The translations under genes were made by a program, and so were the position numbers. A model generated the notes under the pieces. That model saw only the letters and a program-made list of their open reading frames with translations. It did not search any database and was not told the origin of the DNA. This document shows positions 1-12,921 of a stretch of DNA of 64,000 nt, piece after piece. This DNA comes from Micromonospora sp. (lineage in GTDB: Bacteria > Actinomycetota > Actinomycetes > Mycobacteriales > Micromonosporaceae). Every line of letters starts with the position of its first letter. Positions within the stretch are counted from its first letter, which is position 1. The stretch is taken from positions 9,898 through 73,897 of the forward strand of contig DATCMA010000056.1 of the NCBI GenBank assembly GCA_036563645.1, read 5' to 3'.

Positions 1-2
1 AG

Positions 3-122
3 AAGGCGCTGTCGTCTAGTTCCTCGTGCGCGGTCGGCCAGCCATGGCAGGTCTGGGTCGACTGGCTGGATCGCCGCCTCGTCTTCGCCCAAATGATGAT
101 CGGCGATAGCGCGTACTTCTGA
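3..122 (+). CDS. 3' end of an unidentified CDS entering from the window edge (partial)
   Basis: Frame open from base 3 to TGA at 120-122 (..GQPWQVWVDWLDRRLVFAQMMIGDSAYF*). Third positions are mostly G/C. No family recognised. Confidence 0.3.
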   Translation, partial: KALSSSSSCAVGQPWQVWVDWLDRRLVFAQMMIGDSAYF

Positions 123-146
123 GCGGGCGTTCGCTCCTAACGGCCC

Positions 147-1323
147 TCACCTGGTGTCACGCCAGGCGACGTGGTCGGCTGAGCCAAGCCAGTATTGGTG
201 TTCGCCGGTCGCGGTGACGGTGAGACCTATCCGCTCCCTCGGCGGACAACCCGCCGCCATCCACTGGGTCCACACTCGTTCGAGCTCATCCCACAGCGGA
301 CGCCCACGCTGCGTGACCTCATTCGTGTCGACATCGCGGCACGCCCAGGAGCCATCGGCGGCCAGCAACCAATCCTGCTCGGCCCCACCGTCGGAAGGCA
401 TGAAGCGCACCCGCACCACGTCCCGCAGCCGCAGCGCCACGACCAGGCCCGCGTGCTGGTCGTCGAACACCTCAACGGGCACGGAGGTCGTCCGCGGGGG
501 ATGATCTGGGTCCGTACGCATCGCTGTCTGAAGCAGGGGCCCGGCGGCGGGAGCGGTGCCGTGACCGCGGGCGGGCATGAACCCACCCGGACCGGAAAGG
601 CAACAGCCAGAGGCCTGCCCAGCCTCCACGGTAAGCCGCACGAGAGGACCACCGCCGAGCGGACGATGGAGGCTGGCCAGGATGATGCCGCCGTCGCGGA
701 CCTGCTCACACCACGCCATCGGTACGCGGTCCACCGAACACGTGGCGATGAGCCGATCGTTAGGGAGCACCCGCAGGATCGCCCGCGAGACCATCACCAA
801 CGACGACGCGCGGTGCATACCCGATGTCTCCCAAGCGTTGACGGGCGGTCGCGGCGAGCCCGGGATCGACCTCAACCGTGGTGACGTTCTCCGCGCCTAA
901 CCGATGGCAGAGCAGCGCCGCCTGATAGCCCGTACCGGTGCCGATCTCCACCACCCGATGCCCATCGCGGATGTCCAACGCCTCCAGCATCGTGGCCATG
1001 AGAGAGGGCTGACTGCTTGACGAGGTCGGCTCCCCGGTCACCGGCTCCGTGAGCGCACGCTGCCAAAGCTGGTCATCGCCGTTAATCTGCGTGATCAGCA
1101 CGTCGTCGCGGTAGATCGCGTCGAGCCAGCCCGGATCGGAGGGCGGGACTGCAACGAACCGGCCGTAATCCCCCTCGCTAACAGGACGATAGATGCGAGG
1201 CGTGAACACGTGCCGAGGCACGATGTGAAACGCCTCAATCCAGGCGGGATCTCGCAGGTACCCACCATGAATGAGAACTGCGACGTACCTTTCCCGTAAG
1301 GCCTTGTCAGAATTCGTTTTCAT
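147..1323 (-). pseudogene. PIMT-like O-methyltransferase of an ATP-grasp (graspetide) RiPP system, interrupted by a 1-nt frameshift
   Basis: ORFs 760..1323 and 147..875 are two halves of one protein. The N-part has SAM motif VVEIGTGTGYQAALL and ends ..GDGLAGDPAGAP*; the C-part continues NDRLIATCSVDRVPMAWCEQVRDGGIILASL. Removing one T of the TT at 760-761 turns minus-strand cccTAAcgatcgg into ccc-tac-gat-cgg (P-Y-D-R), restoring the canonical PIMT PYDRI motif. The start overlaps the upstream ATP-grasp stop as ATGA. Confidence 0.75.
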
Positions 1324-1862
1324 TCCGGATCCCGAAGCAACGCATCCGCGATCGCAGCAGTAATCGGGAGTCCGGTCGCGTCTTCAATCCATGCCCACTG
1401 TCCATTTGGATTCGCTTCCAAAAACCACACTTGTCCGCACGTGTCCACGACCAGGTCTATAGCGGCAAACCGAAGCCGGAGCTTAGCCACAAGCCTGCGC
1501 AATTTGTCCGCGACATCATCGGGCAGAGTAATCGAGGAATATCGCACTCCGTCCGGATCCGATCGCCAATCCACCTTTGCTGCAGGTGTTATTGCGTCTA
1601 TCCTCGCAGCAAGCACGGTACTGTCAACAACGGTCACGCGTACCTCGTACTCTTTTTCGATCTTGCTCTGGAAAAGATGAGCAGTATACGCGACCGAAGG
1701 ATCCAGATTGTCGTCAGTGATCGGAGTCGTATAGAGAACACGCCCACCTGATATCGGCGCCGTTGTGAGCGGCTTGTATATCACCGGACCCCGTACGGTG
1801 CCGGACCGTCCTGCGATGGCAGGATCGATGACCTTCCGAAGCGTGTACCGAGCGGAAATGTG
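1320..1862 (-). pseudogene. ATP-grasp ribosomal peptide maturase (microviridin/graspetide type), 5'-truncated remnant
   Basis: C-terminal half of a RimK-like ATP-grasp: ..VIYKPLTT.. and ..RFAAIDLVVDTCGQVWFLEANPNGQWAWIEDATGLPITAAIADALL. The frame is closed by an in-frame TGA at 1863-1865. Upstream DNA becomes AT-rich and unrelated, so the N-terminal pre-ATP-grasp region is absent. Confidence 0.7.
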
Positions 1863-2053
1863 TCACGAGCAGGGGAAGTGAGCATGCCTCCTCCACGTCA
1901 CTCGTAGGTTGGAGTGCATTGAGCATAGATACATCAATTTCTTGAGCACTACTCGCAGCAGATCATCTTCGTATTATGAAAGTTAATCAAGGAAGATTGC
2001 TATATGTAAGTCCATATTTGATCATCTCATCACCAGCTATCAAGAAAACTTTT

Positions 2054-2245
2054 TCAGGTCGCGACACAGCCGTTCAGCGCGGTGATGAGCGCGGCGATCG
2101 CGCCGATGAGCGAAGCGAGCGCGTAGAGCGTCGTGTTTCCGTTGTGCCACCAGCTGGAACCAGCCGGCTCGGGCCTGTCCATGGCGCCCACATCCCTTCG
2201 GTCGTTCTCCCCTGGGGTGACTGCAGTGGGGGCACCGGCGGACAC
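2054..2245 (-). CDS. small hypothetical membrane protein (63 aa from GTG 2245, or 42 aa from ATG 2182)
   Basis: GC-rich ORF embedded in AT-rich flanks. C-terminal hydrophobic helix LYALASLIGAIAALITALNG. GAAGGGA lies about 11 nt before ATG 2182. No family recognised. Confidence 0.4.
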   Translation of the reverse strand: MSAGAPTAVTPGENDRRDVGAMDRPEPAGSSWWHNGNTTLYALASLIGAIAALITALNGCVAT

Positions 2246-2272
2246 AACACCCCGTCTATCCGTTAAATGTCG

Positions 2273-2284
2273 ATTAGTACTAAT
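2273..2284. promoter_or_regulatory. perfect 12-bp palindrome ATTAGTACTAAT upstream of the small ORF
   Basis: Read directly from the sequence. Lies in an AT-rich stretch about 30 nt upstream of GTG 2245 on the minus strand. Confidence 0.25.
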
Positions 2285-2504
2285 ACGTCGGTAAGCTCAG
2301 TGTATGTTCACTAAACATCGGCTTCTAGATACGCTCCGTATAGATCACATTCAGACATTCGCCCCAGAGGAGCCGGCGCGGGCCGCATCAGCCTGTCACC
2401 TGCTCAAGCCCGTCTCATCCCCCGTAAACGCTGCCAACGGAAAGGAAATTGGCAAACGATCGCTATTCGGCAGGAATCAGAGAGAACCACCCGCGCACAG
2501 CAGC

Positions 2505-2530
2505 AGGGCCGCCCGTCTCCGGGCGGCCCT
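2505..2530 (-). terminator. GC-rich hairpin downstream of the MCP gene
   Basis: agggccgcccg-tctc-cgggcggccct, an 11-bp perfect stem about 100 nt past the MCP stop. No T-tract, so an I-shaped terminator at best. Confidence 0.4.
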
Positions 2531-2633
2531 CCCCATGACCGCGCGTGGCCTAAACCGGTTCACCATCAGCGCGTCCTCGCCAGCCTGCGGTCACGCGAGC
2601 CATAGCCCCGTCACCGGCTGAGCGTCTGCCGTC

Positions 2634-4244
2634 CTATCCGACGAGGGCGGGGGCTGCTGTCTGGGCGTCGTGCTCGGGATGCGCGCTGGCATCCTCCTGC
2701 CCTCCCCGCAGGTGGTTCAGGAGGACGCTGAACTCATTGCGCAGTCGGTCAGCCGCGGCGGACAGGTCGTGGGACAGCTGCTGGATGCGCTCCGCGACCT
2801 GCCCCGTGGCCTCCGCCGCGCTGCGCACACTCCCGCCGCTCGCGTCCCCTTCCCGGCCAGCGATCGCGAACGCCACCTCCTGGGTGCTGTCGCCGAGGCG
2901 TTTGACCGTCCCCGCCATCCGGTCGATGACCCGCGCCGCCTCCTGGGAGGTCGTTTGAATCGACTCGATCTCGCGCGCGATGTCGTCCGTCGCCCGGGAG
3001 CTCTGCTGCGCGAGCTGCTTGACCTCGTCGGCGACGACCGCGAAACCCTTGCCGAGCTCGCCGGCGCGCGCCGCCTCGATCGTGGCGTTGAGCGCGAGCA
3101 AGTTCGTCTGCTCGGCGACCTTCCGAATGACCTCGACGACCCCGCCGATGGTCTCCGCGGCGGTGGTGAGGCCGTTGACGGTGCCGCTGGCGTCGCTCGC
3201 TTCCGCGGCGGCCCGCCCGGCCACCTCCGTCGACTCCTCGGCCTGTGCGGAGATCTCGCGGACCGCGTCCACCAGGTGGTTGGTGGTCACGCTGAGCTCT
3301 TCCGCGCCCCGCTGCATCGCGTCCACCGCCTCGTCGAGCCGGCGCGCCACCGCGGTGACGGTCACCTCCAACCGATCGGCGATCTCGTTGGCGGCGCGCT
3401 TGCGCTCGGCCTCCGCCTGGGCGCGCATCCGGTCGCGGTCCTTGGCGAGCGCCTCCCGCTCCACCATGCCGTCGCGCAGCACGCTGAGCGCCTCACACAT
3501 CTGGCCGATCGCGTCCCGGCCAGCGGTCGGCAAGCTGACGTTGACATCGCCGTCGGCGAGTCTCCGCGTCGCCTGAGTGATCATGCGGATCGGACGGGTG
3601 ATGCTCAACCCGACGACCACCAGCACCACCGCGACACCCGCGATGATGGCGCTGATCTGTAGGAGGAGCTCCCGTTGCTTGTCGGCGATCGCCGCATGCA
3701 TGTCGTCGATGTAGATGCCGGTGCCGATCACCCAACCCCAGGGCTGGAACCCGGCGACGTAGGTCAGCTTGTCGACCGGTTCGCGATGCCCGGGCTTGGG
3801 CCACTGGTAGTCGACGTATCCCGCCCCATTCTTCGAGACCGTCTTGACGAACTCGACAAAGAGCAACTTGCCGTTGGGGTCGGCGTAGTCGCTCAAGTCT
3901 TGCCCGTCGAGCTCCGGCATCATCGGATGCATGACCATCCGTGGATGCATGTCATTGACGAAGAAGTAGTCGTTGTCGCCGTACCGCATCGACCGCAGCG
4001 CCTCGAGCGCCCGGGTCTGAGCCTCCTCCATCGACATGACGCCGGCTTGCGCGTCCTGGTGGAAGGCCGATACTGCGGTGACCGCACTCTCGACGAGGGC
4101 GCGGATTTTGGCTTTCCTGCTGTCGAGCTCCGCCGGTGCCACGGCAGCGACTTGGGCAATCCCCATCCCGACCAAACCGACTATCGCGACGCCCGCTAAG
4201 ACCCCGAGCTTGACGAAAATGCCCACGTTCCTCCAGCGGAGCAT
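2634..4244 (-). CDS. methyl-accepting chemotaxis protein with periplasmic single-Cache sensor, HAMP and MCP signalling domains
   Basis: Cache-like block ..[47 protein letters not shown].. Signalling hairpin ..[40 protein letters not shown].. Start ATG 4244 ([10 protein letters not shown]..) follows GAGGAGG 9 nt upstream. Confidence 0.9.
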
Positions 4245-7618: not shown

Positions 7619-8914
7619 ATGACCACGTCACTCTCGCGCAGATCGCTGCTGGGGCTGGCAGGAGCCGCTGCCGGGACCGTGTTCCTGGTTGGATGCGGCA
7701 ACGATGACGACAAATCCGGCAACTCGGGTGGCAGCTCCACGATCGAGTGGTGGCACATCTCGAACACCGACCCGCTGCTCAGCATCTGGCAGAAGGCAGC
7801 TGACGACTTCATGGCCCAGAACAGCGGGGTGAGCATCAAGATCACTCCACTGGCGAACGAGGCCTTCAAGTCCAAGCTGACGACGGTCACCCAGGCCGGA
7901 AACGCCCCGAGCCTGTTCCAGTCCTGGGGTGGGGGCGTGCTCAAGCAGCAGGTTGAGGCGGGCCTGCTCAAGGACATCACGGCCGAGATTTCGTCGTTCG
8001 TCGGCAACCTCACGCCCGCGCCGTTGAAGTACTACCAAGTGGACGGCAAGTACTACGGGCTGCCGTTCGACAACGGCATGGTGGGCTTCTGGTACAACAA
8101 GGAACTTTTCGAAAAGGCCGGCATCAAGGACACGCCCAAGACCTGGGGTGAGCTGCTGGAGGCGATCCGCAAGCTCAAGGCCGCCGGCATCACGCCGATC
8201 GCCCTCGGCGGCAAGGACAAGTGGCCGGGGCACTTCTACTGGTCGTACCTGGCGATGCGGGTCGCCGGCGGCGAGGCGCTCGAGGCCGCGATGAGCGAGA
8301 AGAACTTCGAGACGCCGGACCTGCTGGAGGCCACGAAGAAGCTCAAGGACCTCGTCGACCTGCAGCCGTTCCAGAAGGGCTTCCTGGCCGCCACGTACGA
8401 CGGTCCGGACGGCCAGGCCGCGCTCGTCGGCAACGGCCAGGCGGCGATGGAGCTCAACGGCCAGTTCGCCCCGTCCAACCAGGCCGCGTTCTCCAAGTCG
8501 AAGGAAGGGCTCGGCGACAAGCTCGGCTTCTTCCCGTTCCCGGAGGTCGAAGGCGGCAAGGGGAAGATCACTGACGTCTTCGGCGGCGGCAACGGGTTCG
8601 TCGTGGGCAAGGACGCTCCGCCGGAGACGGTGGAGTTCCTCAAGTTCCTGCTGAGCCCCGACGTCCAGCGCAAGGCCGCGGAAGCCGGCGCGATCCTGCC
8701 CACCAACAAGGAGGCGAGCGACGGCGTCAAGGACCCCAACCAGCAGATCGTCGCCAAGACGGTCGCCGAGGCGACCACGTTCCAGCTCTACCTGGACCAG
8801 GCGTGGGAGCCGAAGGTGGGTCAGCAGGTCAACGACAGCGTCGCGGAGCTGATGGCCGGCAAGGCCAGCCCCGAGCAGGTTCTGAAGTCGATCACCGATG
8901 CCGCAAAGCGCTAG
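7619..8914 (+). CDS. sugar ABC transporter substrate-binding lipoprotein (family 1)
   Basis: Tat/lipobox leader MTTSLSRRSLLGLAGAAAGTVFLVGCG. Typical SBP_bac_1 body. RBS GGGAAGGGA. Confidence 0.9.
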   Translation: MTTSLSRRSLLGLAGAAAGTVFLVGCGNDDDKSGNSGGSSTIEWWHISNTDPLLSIWQKAADDFMAQNSGVSIKITPLANEAFKSKLTTVTQAGNAPSLFQSWGGGVLKQQVEAGLLKDITAEISSFVGNLTPAPLKYYQVDGKYYGLPFDNGMVGFWYNKELFEKAGIKDTPKTWGELLEAIRKLKAAGITPIALGGKDKWPGHFYWSYLAMRVAGGEALEAAMSEKNFETPDLLEATKKLKDLVDLQPFQKGFLAATYDGPDGQAALVGNGQAAMELNGQFAPSNQAAFSKSKEGLGDKLGFFPFPEVEGGKGKITDVFGGGNGFVVGKDAPPETVEFLKFLLSPDVQRKAAEAGAILPTNKEASDGVKDPNQQIVAKTVAEATTFQLYLDQAWEPKVGQQVNDSVAELMAGKASPEQVLKSITDAAKR

Positions 8915-9929
8915 TGGATCGCTCGGAGCGGCGCGCGGGACTGGGGACACCCGTCCCGCGCGCCCTCCGGCGCCCGACACAGCCCCGTCAACAACCCGCG
9001 CACCCCGGCCACGAGTCACGCGGAGGGACATCGGCCGCTGGGCGACGATCGCGACGTTCCTCACCCCGGCGCTGCTGCTCTTCGGCGTGCTCGTGCTCGT
9101 GCCGATTGGATTGGCCGCCTACACCAGTTTCTTTGACTGGAACGGTTTTCCGGGGACCGAAAAGTTCATCGGACTGGAGAACTTCCGCCGTCTGGTGAAC
9201 GACGAGGTCTTCCGGGGCGACCTGTGGCGCGGGTTCGTCCTGATTGTCCTGTCCGTCACTGTCCAGCTGCCGTTCGCGCTCGCTCTGGCGCTCCTGCTCA
9301 ACCAGCCACTGCGCGGTCGGGCCATCTACCGGGTGATGTTCTTCGCGCCGTACGTGCTCTCCGAAGTCATCACCGCGGTGCTGTTCTCGATGGTGCTCTC
9401 CCCGAACGTGGGGCTCGCCAACCAGGTGCTCCGGTACGTCGGGCTGGAAGAGCTGGCGGCGGAGTGGCTCGCCGATACCTCCACGGTGCTCTACGCCGTC
9501 TTCGTGGTGATCACCTGGAAGTACTTCGGCTTCTACATGATCCTCTTCCTCGCCGCGCGGCAGAGCATCCCCGCGGAGATCATCGAAGCGGCTGCGGTGG
9601 ATGGCGCCAACGCCTGGAAGACCTTCTGGCACGTCACCCTGCCCTTGCTCGGGCCGACGATCCGGATCGCCGTCTTCCTCTCGATCATCGGGACCATCCA
9701 GCTCTTCGACGCCGTCTGGGTGCTCACCGGCGGTGGCCCGGTACACGCGTCGGAGACGATGGCGATCACCATGTACCGGTACGGCTTCCAGAGCTACGAG
9801 GTCGGCTACGCCAGCGCGATCAGCATCGCGATGTTCATGATCAGCCTCGTGTTCGCGTTGCTGTACCAGCGGTTTGTGCTGCGCCGCGACACGGAGGGGG
9901 CGGTCACCGTGATCGGAGGCAAGCGATGA
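8898..9929 (+). CDS. carbohydrate ABC transporter permease (MalF-like)
   Basis: Six-TM permease with EAA-type loop ..IIEAAAVDGANAWKTFWHVTLPLLGP.. Only ATG 8898 is available in frame, overlapping the SBP stop. Confidence 0.85.
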   Translation: MPQSASGSLGAARGTGDTRPARPPAPDTAPSTTRAPRPRVTRRDIGRWATIATFLTPALLLFGVLVLVPIGLAAYTSFFDWNGFPGTEKFIGLENFRRLVNDEVFRGDLWRGFVLIVLSVTVQLPFALALALLLNQPLRGRAIYRVMFFAPYVLSEVITAVLFSMVLSPNVGLANQVLRYVGLEELAAEWLADTSTVLYAVFVVITWKYFGFYMILFLAARQSIPAEIIEAAAVDGANAWKTFWHVTLPLLGPTIRIAVFLSIIGTIQLFDAVWVLTGGGPVHASETMAITMYRYGFQSYEVGYASAISIAMFMISLVFALLYQRFVLRRDTEGAVTVIGGKR

Positions 9930-10771
9930 GCCGCACCAAGACGAAACGGCGCGGCACACGGGCCGCACCGCTCCTGCACCTCATAGCGATCAGTATCGGC
10001 GCCTTCATCGTCGTTCCCATCATCTATGGGGTGCTCGGGGGGTTCAAGGACAACGCCCAGCTCGCGCAGAACCCGATCGCGTGGCCTGATCCGTGGCGGC
10101 CGAGCAACTACACCGAGATCCTCACGTCGTCGTCGTTCTGGCGGCAGGCCTGGAACAGCCTGTTCATCGCCGTGTCGACGACGGTGCTCGTGGTGGGCGT
10201 GGCGGCGATGGCGGCGTTCATCTTCGCCCGCTACGCGTTCCGCGGCCGGGAGTTCTTCTTCACGCTCTTCGCGATGGGGCTGATGTTCCCGTTCGCGGTC
10301 GCGATCCTGCCGCTGTTCGTCCTGCTGCGCTCGATGGGGTTGCTCGACAACCCGCTCGGTGTGATCCTCCCGCAGGCCGCCTTCGGCTTGCCGATCACGA
10401 TCATCATCCTGCGCGGCTTCTTCCGCGAGATCCCAGCGGAGATCGAGGAGGCAGCGACCCTCGACGGCTGCTCGCCGTTCACGTTCTTCGTGCGGATCTT
10501 GCTGCCGATGGCCCGCCCGGCGCTCGCCACCGTCTCGGTGTTGGCGATCGTCTCCAGCTGGAACAACTTCATGCTGCCGCTGGTCGTCTTCAGCGACCAG
10601 ACCTGGTGGACCCTGCCGCTGGGCGTGCAGCAGTTCCAGGGGCAATACACCAGCGACACCGCTCGTGTCCTGGCGTATGTCGTGATGGCGATGCTCCCCG
10701 CGTTGGCGTTCTACTCCGTGGCGGAGCGTCAACTCATCGGCGGGCTCACCGCCGGGGCGACCAAGGGGTGA
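9926..10771 (+). CDS. carbohydrate ABC transporter permease (MalG-like)
   Basis: MSRTKTKRRG.. with EAA loop ..IEEAATLDGCSPFTFFVRILLPMARP.. ATGA overlap with the previous permease. GGAGG at 9915-9919. Confidence 0.9.
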   Translation: MSRTKTKRRGTRAAPLLHLIAISIGAFIVVPIIYGVLGGFKDNAQLAQNPIAWPDPWRPSNYTEILTSSSFWRQAWNSLFIAVSTTVLVVGVAAMAAFIFARYAFRGREFFFTLFAMGLMFPFAVAILPLFVLLRSMGLLDNPLGVILPQAAFGLPITIIILRGFFREIPAEIEEAATLDGCSPFTFFVRILLPMARPALATVSVLAIVSSWNNFMLPLVVFSDQTWWTLPLGVQQFQGQYTSDTARVLAYVVMAMLPALAFYSVAERQLIGGLTAGATKG

Positions 10772-10786
10772 CGATTCGACACCTCG

Positions 10787-10824
10787 GAGCGCGGAAGGTG
10801 GGTCGTGCCGCTCACCTTCCGCGC
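10787..10824 (+). terminator. hairpin after the sugar ABC operon
   Basis: gagcgcggaaggtg / caccttccgcgc, about a 12-bp stem starting 16 nt after the stop. No T-tract. Confidence 0.4.
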
Positions 10825-11005
10825 CCGATCGCTCCCCTAGTCAGACGTCGTCCGGTCGAGGGGCGTGGCGGAACCCACCGGGCGGCGCGACGCCACGGGT
10901 CGACCATCCTCACCGGCGAGGAGGCCGGTCCGACCGCCACCGGGAGCTGAGGTCAGCCGGGGGCTGGGGTCAGCGAGGAGACACGAGAGAGACGAGAGCC
11001 ACATC

Positions 11006-11020
11006 GTGACGAAATTCACA
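11006..11020. promoter_or_regulatory. CRP/FNR-type inverted repeat GTGA-N6-TCACA
   Basis: cGTGAcgaaatTCACa read directly. Matches 9 of 10 positions of the generic TGTGA-N6-TCACA consensus. Confidence 0.25.
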
Positions 11021-11209
11021 TAGACGAGCCGCGTTGGATGACATCGTCTGTCATCATCGTCTACGAGGTGGGCTGCTCCCCTGGCCTGTGCCGCGCCGAA
11101 CCCCCCAGAAATGTTGTTTCATCGCGGTTTCGCGTGCCTGCCCCCGCCGGCCGTGGGCAGGCCGACAACCGGGGACGGCGGCACGGACCGGGCGCGGCGA
11201 CAGCGCCAT

Positions 11210-11246
11210 ATTGGGCAGGTCACGGTAGGAACATTGGGCGGGTCAC
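11210..11246 (+). promoter_or_regulatory. two 14-nt direct repeats ATTGGGC(A/G)GGTCAC, 23 bp start-to-start
   Basis: Copies at 11210-11223 and 11233-11246, 13 of 14 identical, about 70-110 nt upstream of ATG 11319. Confidence 0.3.
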
Positions 11247-11318
11247 TGGCATGAGCAGGTGAGATGAACAGATAGTTACCTGGAGCGACCTGTTGTCGAG
11301 CTGCGAGAGGTGGCCCTG

Positions 11319-11660
11319 ATGGACGAGCCGATACCCGACGAGAACGTGCCGCCGGACGTCACGGACATCATGCTCTGGCGCCTGGCTTCCCAGGTCGCCG
11401 AAAGCCACCGCCCTGACCCGAATGACCCGACGCGGTGCTCCAACCTGCGGTGCGCGCGCGAGACGTACCCGTGCGAGGCGGCACGCTCCGCGGAGTACGC
11501 GCTGCGCGCGAGTCGTGCTCGGCCCCAGGCGCCGGAGGCGGAACCCGCACCGGCTGGTGAAGCCCCGACGCCAATGGCGACGACCTCCCAGCCACGCGTC
11601 GACCTGGACGCGACCTCGGGGTGGTCCGCAGGACGGCGCCGCTCGCGCTCCGCGGCTTGA
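11319..11660 (+). CDS. hypothetical protein (113 aa, three Cys: CSNLRCARETYPC)
   Basis: ATG 11319 preceded by GAGAGGTGG. High GC3 through the first two thirds. No family recognised. Confidence 0.45.
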   Translation: MDEPIPDENVPPDVTDIMLWRLASQVAESHRPDPNDPTRCSNLRCARETYPCEAARSAEYALRASRARPQAPEAEPAPAGEAPTPMATTSQPRVDLDATSGWSAGRRRSRSAA

Positions 11661-12168
11661 TCGCTCGACCGCCGGTCCTCAGCTCACTCGTCGTCTCACT
11701 CGTCCCGGAACGCCAGATCCTGTCGACGACAGGCGGTCGGTGTCCGCCGAGCGCGGCGTGCTCCAGGGCGGGCCGCCCAGATCGTGCCACCGGACCGACC
11801 GGTGCCCGTGCACCGCGGTCCTCGCGACCACTGCTTCCGCTGCGGCGTCCAGCGGCTCGTCGACAACGACGTCACCACGTCGGCGGTGAGCCCAGCGCGC
11901 GGAGCTGGGTGATCGCCGCGTCGACGGCCGCGCGGGCGGTATCGCGCGCGTGGTCGTATGACTGGTGGGCCCGCTCGGTCACCGCTCCTGCCTGCGACGC
12001 CCGCGCCACACCAGGGCCAGGCTGATCTCGACAACGACCGATCCTCCGTCGGCGCCTGTCCAGGCTGCCCTAGGCCATCGGGTTGTCGGCCGGACAAGAC
12101 AAGCCTGGACAGCGATCGGTCAGGCGCGATTGTGGGCGTGCCCGCTCCGATGACTCCCGAGGCCAGGG

Positions 12169-12921
12169 TCACTGGCCGACCAACACCGGTGGTGCGACCC
12201 GCGCGCGATGGGCTTCCGCGCACCGTTGGGAGAGGGCGTATCGAACGAGGACGACGTCCTCGATCTGCCGAACCTCCAGCACGGTGGCGCGATTTCCCGG
12301 ATGCCAGGGGAACCGCCCATCGCCGACGAATCGGGGCGCGCGCCGGTCGCCGATGAAGAATGGGGCGACCACCAGGTGCAGCTCGTCGGCGAGCCCGGCG
12401 GTGAGGAACTGCGAATGCATCGACTCACCGCCCTCCACCAGCAGCCGGCGCACACCGCGGAGCGCAAGATCAGCGAGGACGCGCTCCGGGCGTACCGGAT
12501 CCCCACCGTCGACGACGGTCGCCACGCCGCCGAGCGCTTCGCGTGTCTTGGCCCAGACCCGCGTGGCGCAGTACACCACCTTCTCCACGTTGCCCTGGGT
12601 GAAGAACCGAGAACTCGGGTCGAGGTCGCCGCTGGCGGTGACGGTGACCTTCATCGGCGACGGCGACAATCCTCGCCGCACCCGCCACGCGCGCCGGGAC
12701 GGCGAGCGCACGAGCAAGCGGGGATTGTCGGCTCGGACGGTGCCGGCGCCGACCAGGATCGCGTCGCACTCGGCGCGCACCGCGTCGACCCGATCCAAGT
12801 CGGCCGCGTTGGACAGCAACAGCCGCTGACCGCTGGCGTCGTCGATATACCCGTCGATCGACATCGCGCAGCTCAGCAGGACGTACGGACGCTCAACCAT
12901 GGGCCACGGACGGTCAGTCAT
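12169..12921 (-). CDS. RibD C-terminal-type reductase / dihydrofolate-reductase-family protein (no deaminase domain)
   Basis: ..YVLLSCAMSIDGYIDDASG..DRVDAVRAECDAILVGAGTVRADNPRL..RRLLVEGGESMHSQFLTAGLADELHLVVAPFFIG.. Start 12921 overlaps the ribA stop. Alternative ATG at 12900. Confidence 0.8.
   Translation of the reverse strand: MTDRPWPMVERPYVLLSCAMSIDGYIDDASGQRLLLSNAADLDRVDAVRAECDAILVGAGTVRADNPRLLVRSPSRRAWRVRRGLSPSPMKVTVTASGDLDPSSRFFTQGNVEKVVYCATRVWAKTREALGGVATVVDGGDPVRPERVLADLALRGVRRLLVEGGESMHSQFLTAGLADELHLVVAPFFIGDRRAPRFVGDGRFPWHPGNRATVLEVRQIEDVVLVRYALSQRCAEAHRARVAPPVLVGQ

Follow-up and report, generated by a model that had tools for sequence, protein, structure and literature searches.

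A degraded graspimiditide cluster in Micromonospora sp. with a probably selectively retained orphan methyltransferase

The beginning of the 64,000-nucleotide stretch of Micromonospora sp. DNA analyzed here (contig DATCMA010000056.1 of assembly GCA_036563645.1, positions 9,898 to 73,897; this whole stretch is referred to as the window) encodes on its minus strand, head to tail, a remnant of an ATP-grasp peptide maturase and a methyltransferase, the latter in two frames as the window is written. In our judgment, this locus is probably a degraded graspimiditide cluster with a selectively retained orphan methyltransferase and not a wholly dead one. A preliminary description of the same DNA had seen in it a snapshot of RiPP cluster loss, with the maturase gene decapitated, the methyltransferase gene frameshifted, and the precursor gene gone. 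Its reading of the letters was correct, as all the items it listed are found in the window, including the TT at 760-761; its picture of a wholly dead locus is not borne out, as the methyltransferase gene is whole in other assemblies and appears to be under purifying selection. Decay of a cluster is, as such, ordinary. What is notable in this case is that the apparent frameshift is an artifact and that the methyltransferase is a recurrent, selected survivor. A literature search found no paper on graspetides and pseudogenes. The features discussed below are as follows.

1..122, plus strand: 3' end of a convergent 239-aa hypothetical gene, within the low-divergence block; no Pfam or NCBIfam match
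147..1323, minus strand: gene for a graspimiditide-type aspartyl/isoaspartyl O-methyltransferase, 391 aa when read without base 760 (TIGR04188; protein P0028)
760..760: extra T (A on the coding strand), left out in the contigs of runs X1, X7, X10, and X17 and absent from contigs L111, L112, and L113
1320..1826, minus strand: 3' remnant of the ATP-grasp peptide maturase gene (TIGR04187 positions 157-311; tblastn; alignment to L108, L018, L019, and L067)
1330..1789: part of the remnant for which the sister lineage has a 17-nt filler (joint 1329->1790 in runs X17 and X7; alignment of L098, L120, L121, and L125)
1827..1865, minus strand: 12 nonhomologous codons and an in-frame TGA at 1865..1863 (tblastn and alignment; junction also in the sister lineage)
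1827..2053: AT-rich noncoding spacer, 43.6% GC, single copy, with no repeats, promoter-like sites, or Rfam match
2054..2182, minus strand: 42-aa hydrophobic open reading frame (ORF) at the precursor position (gene call on independent contigs; conserved between the two lineages)

The maturase remnant and the missing precursor gene

The open frame at 1862..1320 (minus strand, 180 codons) matches positions 157 to 311 of the 312-position model TIGR04187 (ATP-grasp ribosomal peptide maturase; E value, 1.3e-55). Its score of 188.8 bits is below the 350 bits by which a full-length maturase was recognized, model positions 1 to 156, which correspond to the N-terminal and central regions of the ATP-grasp fold, are lacking, and no Pfam model scores over threshold in this frame. 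Searches by tblastn with the intact maturases of Salinispora (L018), Actinoplanes (L019), and a groundwater metagenome-assembled genome (L067) recover C-terminal halves only and stop at 1826, and the 12 codons between this point and the upstream in-frame TGA have no homology to the intact genes. On this alignment with the intact loci of relatives, the deletion breakpoint is placed at 1826/1827. Neither the N-terminal half of the maturase (by tblastn) nor a second TIGR04187 match was found elsewhere in the 2.84-Mb, 89.65%-complete assembly, in agreement with the earlier statement that only the C-terminal half survives. The sole start codon in the remnant is a GTG at 1784, with a weak GGGG upstream.

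The maturase and methyltransferase genes follow each other on one strand in tight coupling, the stop codon of the former and the start codon of the latter overlapping in the ATGA at 1323..1320; the same gene order is found in L018, L019, L067, and L108. Both this ATGA and the TGA at 1863-1865 are present as previously described. The family searches assign the fragment to TIGR04187 and the methyltransferase to TIGR04188, and these profile matches confirm the proposed relationship to the SAV_5884/fuscimiditide-type graspetide systems with their PIMT-type methyltransferase. The locus thus derives from the graspimiditide kind, although two of the defining features, the precursor and a full-length maturase, are missing.

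The precursor gene was sought in three ways. The best TIGR04186 match in the whole assembly (E value, 0.26) falls within a 935-aa open frame, tblastn with three precursors from intact loci gave nothing better than an E value of 0.3 in the assembly, and TIGR04186 matched neither the small ORFs of 1827-2640 nor the other ORFs of the window. The same model detected precursors beside the maturase gene in three of five intact loci of relatives, so its sensitivity is real but incomplete. In line with the preliminary description, which called the precursor gene gone, neither type of search found it in an assembly that is 90% complete. At the position where the precursor would be expected lies the 42-aa ORF, which has a C-terminal membrane-like hydrophobic helix and two Asn-Gly sites; the longer, 63-codon frame at 2054-2245 has a GC content at third codon positions (GC3) of 0.81. 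The 42-aa products of the two lineages introduced below are 100% identical, with two synonymous differences between the genes (the flanking genes have dS values of 0.4 to 0.9). This ORF matches neither TIGR04186 nor any other family and has no homologue elsewhere in the genome. We considered it as a degenerate precursor and rejected it: besides the lack of a TIGR04186 match, there is no homologue beside the methyltransferase gene in L108, L114, L018, L019, or L067.

The DNA beyond the TGA is indeed AT rich, with 43.6% GC in the approximately 230 nt of 1827-2053 versus 69.7% in the genome. A neighboring low-GC insertion had been proposed as the cause of the decay. We do not retain this proposal, given that the region 1827-2633 is single copy in the genome and also present in the sister lineage, with which the AT-rich stretch is shared at 82 to 95% identity. 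Notable flanking direct or inverted repeats, promoter-like sites, a convincing terminator, and Rfam families (best E value, 0.15) were all absent from 1827-2633, and no insertion sequence or integrase was seen in the AT-rich region.

The apparent frameshift in the methyltransferase gene

As the window is written, the match to TIGR04188 (ATP-grasp peptide maturase system methyltransferase; cutoff, 380 bits) is split between positions 3-174 of the model in 1323..760 and positions 174-362 in 875..147 (233.6 and 142.2 bits), the extra base at 760 creating an apparent frameshift and a TAA at 762..760. When one T of the TT at 760-761 is dropped, the sequence APYDRLIATC and a single 391-codon frame are obtained.

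The stretch 1-4000 is present, at 85 to 99% of the sampled words, in 16 public runs from six studies of metagenomes from manure, soil, and compost; in manure and compost samples, the organism has depths of 6 to 85. The Logan contigs of four of these runs, from four studies, were compared (X1, X7, X10, and X17), and all of them skip base 760 at full depth; in X1, the probable source run, this applies to a depth of 84.8 out of 84.8. The ENA contig L111 aligns with the contig of the window over 9,176 nt with no mismatches and a single gap, which is base 760, and the Logan contigs L112 and L113 also lack it. Protein P0028, encoded on L111 and L112, is 100% identical to the product of the window gene read without base 760. 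Base 760 was judged from contigs, which drop rare variants, and not from raw reads, so a frameshifted variant might exist as a minority. The extra T is either an assembly error or a private variant of this assembly, and the gene is intact in the population. Hence, the earlier statement that an extra T destroys the PYDRI motif is right for the window as written, whereas in the other assemblies PYDR is whole; the suggested verification of 760-761, done here on the contigs of four runs, found the extra T in none of them, and the methyltransferase gene can no longer be called frameshifted.

These data bear directly on the possibility that the whole cluster is dead, with the methyltransferase gene frameshifted in the organism itself and all three genes decaying. 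The extra base and the TAA at 762..760 in the window would be expected on that account, but seven independent assemblies lack the base, including that of the probable source run at a depth of 84.8, the four alleles found on 22 contigs are all open, and dN/dS is below 1. We regard a wholly dead cluster as highly improbable.

The intact protein has the properties of a complete member of its family. P0028 scores 397.2 bits against TIGR04188, above the cutoff, and keeps all 68 invariant columns in an alignment (A1) with 16 cluster-associated homologues. The retained motifs include GTGTG, for S-adenosylmethionine (SAM), PYDR, and, as WMAAGCP, the WxxxGxP motif that is typical of RiPP-associated PIMT homologues according to a 2026 review (PMC13001092). 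Two shorter database proteins, P0018 and P0019 (369 and 357 aa), were considered as cases of N-terminal decay and dismissed: their DNA is identical to that of the 391-aa allele, so their lengths reflect the start choice of the gene caller. More generally, before gene decay is deduced from a frameshift of one base in a metagenome-assembled genome, other assemblies should be consulted.

Elsewhere in the same genome, two near-identical copies of a PIMT-like methyltransferase of an FxLD system (lanthipeptide type) are located at contig ends (L004, G000:C66:1-2199, and L005, G000:C29:78485-80212). The C66 copy is in two frames near nt 355-370 and is followed by a XerC/D-like tyrosine recombinase gene; the C29 copy reads through. 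The split could reflect either another indel of the assembly or a break induced by the repeat.

Sister lineage, relatives, and selection on the methyltransferase

Some metagenomes contain a sister lineage in which positions 1329 and 1790 are joined through 17 other letters. This form accounts for all of the depth in X17 and for a depth of 11 in X7, where the remnant-bearing form has 20.8. Contigs with the 17-nt joint encode P0001, a methyltransferase of 391 aa that is 95.7% identical to that of the window and is listed in 48 index blocks. Contig L120 was considered as a third stub-bearing lineage and dismissed, as it carries the 17-nt deletion junction. In the alignment of L098, L120, L121, and L125, the sister lineage has the same sequence across 1826/1827 and upstream, so the truncation is common to both lineages. 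The loss of 460 nt of the stub in the sister lineage, where the methyltransferase gene is open, is by this comparison a second-step deletion.

The 22 contigs covering the methyltransferase gene collapse into four alleles, none of which contains a stop codon. Comparison of the two lineages shows 17 nonsynonymous changes and 18 synonymous ones in this gene (dN/dS, 0.32; dS, 0.06), where neutrality predicts approximately 74% nonsynonymous changes (binomial P = 0.001). Since the breakpoint is common to both lineages, this dN/dS dates from after the truncation, and the substitution pattern indicates that the methyltransferase has been under purifying selection since then. The ratio is above the 0.18 of deep comparisons, and changes are seen at conserved positions (R240C and F241C in the window allele; P187S, L297P, and D323G in the sister allele), so that the constraint is perhaps relaxing, though not absent.

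The time that this comparison samples is short. Between the lineages, dS is 0.86 for the DUF4142 gene and 0.49 for the chemoreceptor gene on one side and 0.39 for the DUF4352 gene on the other, as opposed to 0.03 to 0.065 for the 42-aa ORF, the methyltransferase gene, and the convergent 239-aa gene. By sliding identity, the similar block is approximately 3.5 kb long, from about position 2780 to about 780 nt before the start of the window (G000:C7, ~9110-12680), and it looks like the result of a recent recombination between two species. The placement of the methyltransferase gene in a block of low dS (0.03 to 0.06) between flanks with dS values of 0.4 to 0.9 is the reason why little time since the truncation has been sampled.

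Several further observations were made on this block and its surroundings. It comprises the 3' end of the chemoreceptor gene, the small ORF, the stub, the methyltransferase gene, and the 239-aa gene, with 93 to 100% identity versus 78 to 92% in the flanks; its AT-rich noncoding parts are the most diverged (82 to 88%). The 239-aa gene was rejected as a conserved partner of the methyltransferase, as it belongs to no family and the downstream gene is unrelated in the relatives with 70% identity. Just before the window (G000:C7, ~8560-9110) is a segment of about 550 nt, absent from the sister lineage, that includes a 135-aa ORF (weak CPP1-like Pfam match; E value, 6e-4). At 2949-3216, in the chemoreceptor signaling domain, contig depth rises three- to twentyfold in all four metagenome runs, and loose ends are numerous there; the rise reflects matches to this conserved domain in other organisms and is not a copy-number feature.

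The short time also affects how the stub is to be read. It remains stop free through 180 codons at 55.6% GC in a genome of 70% GC, its GC3 is 0.55 versus 0.73 to 0.86 in the same columns of intact homologues and 0.72 to 0.78 in the adjacent methyltransferase gene, and its lineage-specific changes number 5, 3, and 17 at codon positions 1, 2, and 3, with 16 of the 17 third-position changes going from GC to AT. The dN relative to L108 (0.22) equals that of the methyltransferase gene. These substitutions fit a constrained protein whose synonymous sites have drifted to AT, unlike those of a long-neutral pseudogene. It could be argued from this pattern, and from the preserved ATGA overlap and the recurrence of 3' stubs in three other genomes, that the 154 to 180 codons have been retained for cause, either as a translated half-protein or as an upstream frame coupled through the ATGA to methyltransferase expression. 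We find this quite improbable. The sister lineage has removed 460 nt of the stub and its methyltransferase gene is still open, gene callers skip the stub on L111 to L113, model positions 1 to 156 are missing, and the only start is the GTG behind a weak GGGG. The open frame itself was rejected as a proof of selection: with a dS of only about 0.06 in the block, it is unsurprising and expected by chance in so short a time. Nor does the short form appear as a conserved functional gene in relatives, the finding that would have spoken against the preliminary description of the stub as a decayed maturase, as the sister lineage has deleted most of it.

Other relatives carry lesions of their own. The methyltransferase genes of the next relatives are approximately 70% identical to that of the window and 97% identical among themselves at the DNA level. 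In L108 to L110, a maturase of 305 aa (366 bits) is retained and the precursor gene and approximately the first 12 maturase codons are deleted. In L114, L117, and L118, the precursor gene is kept (in L114, 98 aa; TIGR04186 score of 36.1 bits versus a cutoff of 25; 58% identity to the Salinispora precursor), and an internal deletion of 642 nt puts the two ends of the maturase gene in different frames. L115 and L116 have the same 642-nt deletion, with pilus genes in place of the precursor gene. The broken-cyclase form is by far the commoner, with 124 index blocks versus 3 contigs. All of these relatives keep an open methyltransferase gene (390 to 402 aa). The relatives with the internally deleted cyclase also have a 735-nt insertion upstream of the precursor gene, whose opposite strand encodes a 159-aa fragment of a PCMT domain (L114:3615-4094, minus strand).

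Among 40 related genomes of the same family and order, three have a 3' ATP-grasp stub beside a methyltransferase gene. In G019:C34 and G020:C2, maturase C-terminal ends of 43 and 83 aa, respectively, adjoin full-length methyltransferases, and in G033:C6 a stub of 72 aa adjoins a methyltransferase that is itself cut at the C terminus. Three more methyltransferase genes (in G015, 384.8 bits; G038; and G020:C1) have neither a stub nor a precursor gene within 2 kb, and a search upstream of the orphan methyltransferase genes of G015, G038, and G020 for imiditide-like precursors yielded nothing convincing. Judging from these sequences, related genomes have repeatedly and independently lost the cyclase or the precursor while the methyltransferase gene stayed open. 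In every stub it is the 3' end that is left, as would be expected if selection removes deletions that reach the methyltransferase gene or its translation start.

The main rival to a selected orphan is a methyltransferase gene that has simply not yet decayed, functionless and intact only for lack of time, with the dN/dS signal a residual or short-time effect. The divergence after the truncation is small (35 differences; dS, 0.06), the ratio is above its deep value with substitutions at conserved positions, and the known members of the family require a cyclized substrate (PMC13001092), all of which would fit such a gene; the C-terminally cut methyltransferase at the stub locus G033:C6 likewise speaks against retention. 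On the other hand, with its 1.2 kb the methyltransferase gene exceeds the other two in size, and yet the independent deletions seen in this clade have struck only the cyclase and precursor genes and left its frame open; full-length orphans and loci with a stub plus a methyltransferase gene recur in other genera; and the binomial tests reject neutrality (P = 0.001 and 3e-5). On balance, mere lack of time seems to us a rather unlikely explanation.

The methyltransferase might also act in trans for a second graspetide system, whose genes would lie in the tenth of the genome that is missing from the assembly. Completeness stands at 89.65%, and some relatives, e.g., G019, have two loci, but the 2.84 Mb at hand contain no other TIGR04187 match and no precursor gene, and characterized enzymes are highly specific for their own cyclized peptide (PMC13001092). 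This makes service in trans very doubtful indeed.

The history that we favor would start from a three-gene graspimiditide cluster, with genes for the precursor, for a cyclase of the ATP-grasp type, and for the PIMT-type Asp O-methyltransferase responsible for the aspartimide. A deletion with its breakpoint at 1826/1827, predating the split of the two sister lineages, would have taken the precursor gene together with the 5' half of the cyclase gene. The 3' half would then be a dead stub, kept in the lineage of the window and mostly replaced by 17 nt in the sister lineage; 3' cyclase stubs may persist because deletions reaching the translation start of the methyltransferase gene are counterselected. 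With the precursor and a working cyclase gone, no graspimiditide can come from this locus. The methyltransferase gene has stayed under purifying selection after the cyclase was lost, and we infer that the enzyme still methylates Asp or isoAsp residues of some substrate independent of this cyclase. Taken as a whole, this history with a selected orphan methyltransferase has, in our view, a good likelihood of being correct.

Comparison with graspimiditides, imiditides, and protein repair methyltransferases

Graspimiditides are the group 13 graspetides, which include fuscimiditide (ThfA/B/M of Thermobifida fusca), amycolimiditide, and albusimiditide (PMC13001092; bioRxiv 10.1101/2023.06.21.545981; 10.1101/2021.05.19.444834). 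In these systems, the ATP-grasp enzyme cyclizes the precursor through Thr-Asp esters, and one Asp of the loop is then methylated by the methyltransferase, which leads to the aspartimide; the characterized methyltransferases refuse linear precursors and require at least two ester cross-links (PMC13001092). The locus described here shares with them the two enzyme families (TIGR04187 and TIGR04188), the gene order, and the ATGA overlap, its methyltransferase contains a WxxxGxP motif and an additional C-terminal domain, and the relatives with 70% identity carry a typical precursor (a His, a Thr-rich stem, an Asp-Ser loop, and an Asp/Glu-rich stem). It differs from graspimiditide clusters in having no precursor and a cyclase without model positions 1 to 156; the methyltransferase alone is whole. 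Mining for graspimiditides starts from the methyltransferase and drops the matches that lack an ATP-grasp gene and a precursor, with only 1,083 of 5,000 homologues having passed in one study (bioRxiv 10.1101/2023.06.21.545981). As the present locus and its relatives demonstrate, some of the discarded matches are derived states of true clusters, in which the methyltransferase survives under selection.

Imiditides, or type I pamtides, consist of a precursor and a PIMT homologue only, as in NmaA/NmaM and SpaA/SpaM (PMC13001092, PMC10787088). The likeness is limited to the presence of a lone PIMT homologue with a C-terminal domain and no cyclase. Unlike in imiditides, the enzyme scores as a member of the graspetide-associated subfamily, and no linear precursor rich in Gly, Pro, Asp, and Lys was recognized beside its gene: the sole conserved small ORF (2054-2182) is hydrophobic and no other candidate was seen. 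As a speculation that we would put forward only tentatively and consider unlikely at present, cyclase-less methyltransferases of the graspimiditide type may have gained a cyclase-independent substrate, either a linear peptide or a cellular protein. The stub loci would then be snapshots of a route to a stand-alone, class-defining enzyme, as in imiditides, and the ~3.5-kb block would be spreading because it is useful. An orphan enzyme with its own substrate would bear on the purpose of aspartimidylation and on substrate choice, both named as questions in the 2026 review (PMC13001092).

With the canonical Pcm/PIMT enzymes (TIGR00080), the methyltransferase has in common the SAM-dependent catalytic domain (PF01135, with GxGxG). 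However, it scores only 85.1 bits against TIGR00080, for which the cutoff is 159, and whereas the canonical enzymes have about 210 aa and no C-terminal domain, it has 391 aa, is thus approximately 180 aa longer, and carries the C-terminal domain of the RiPP type.
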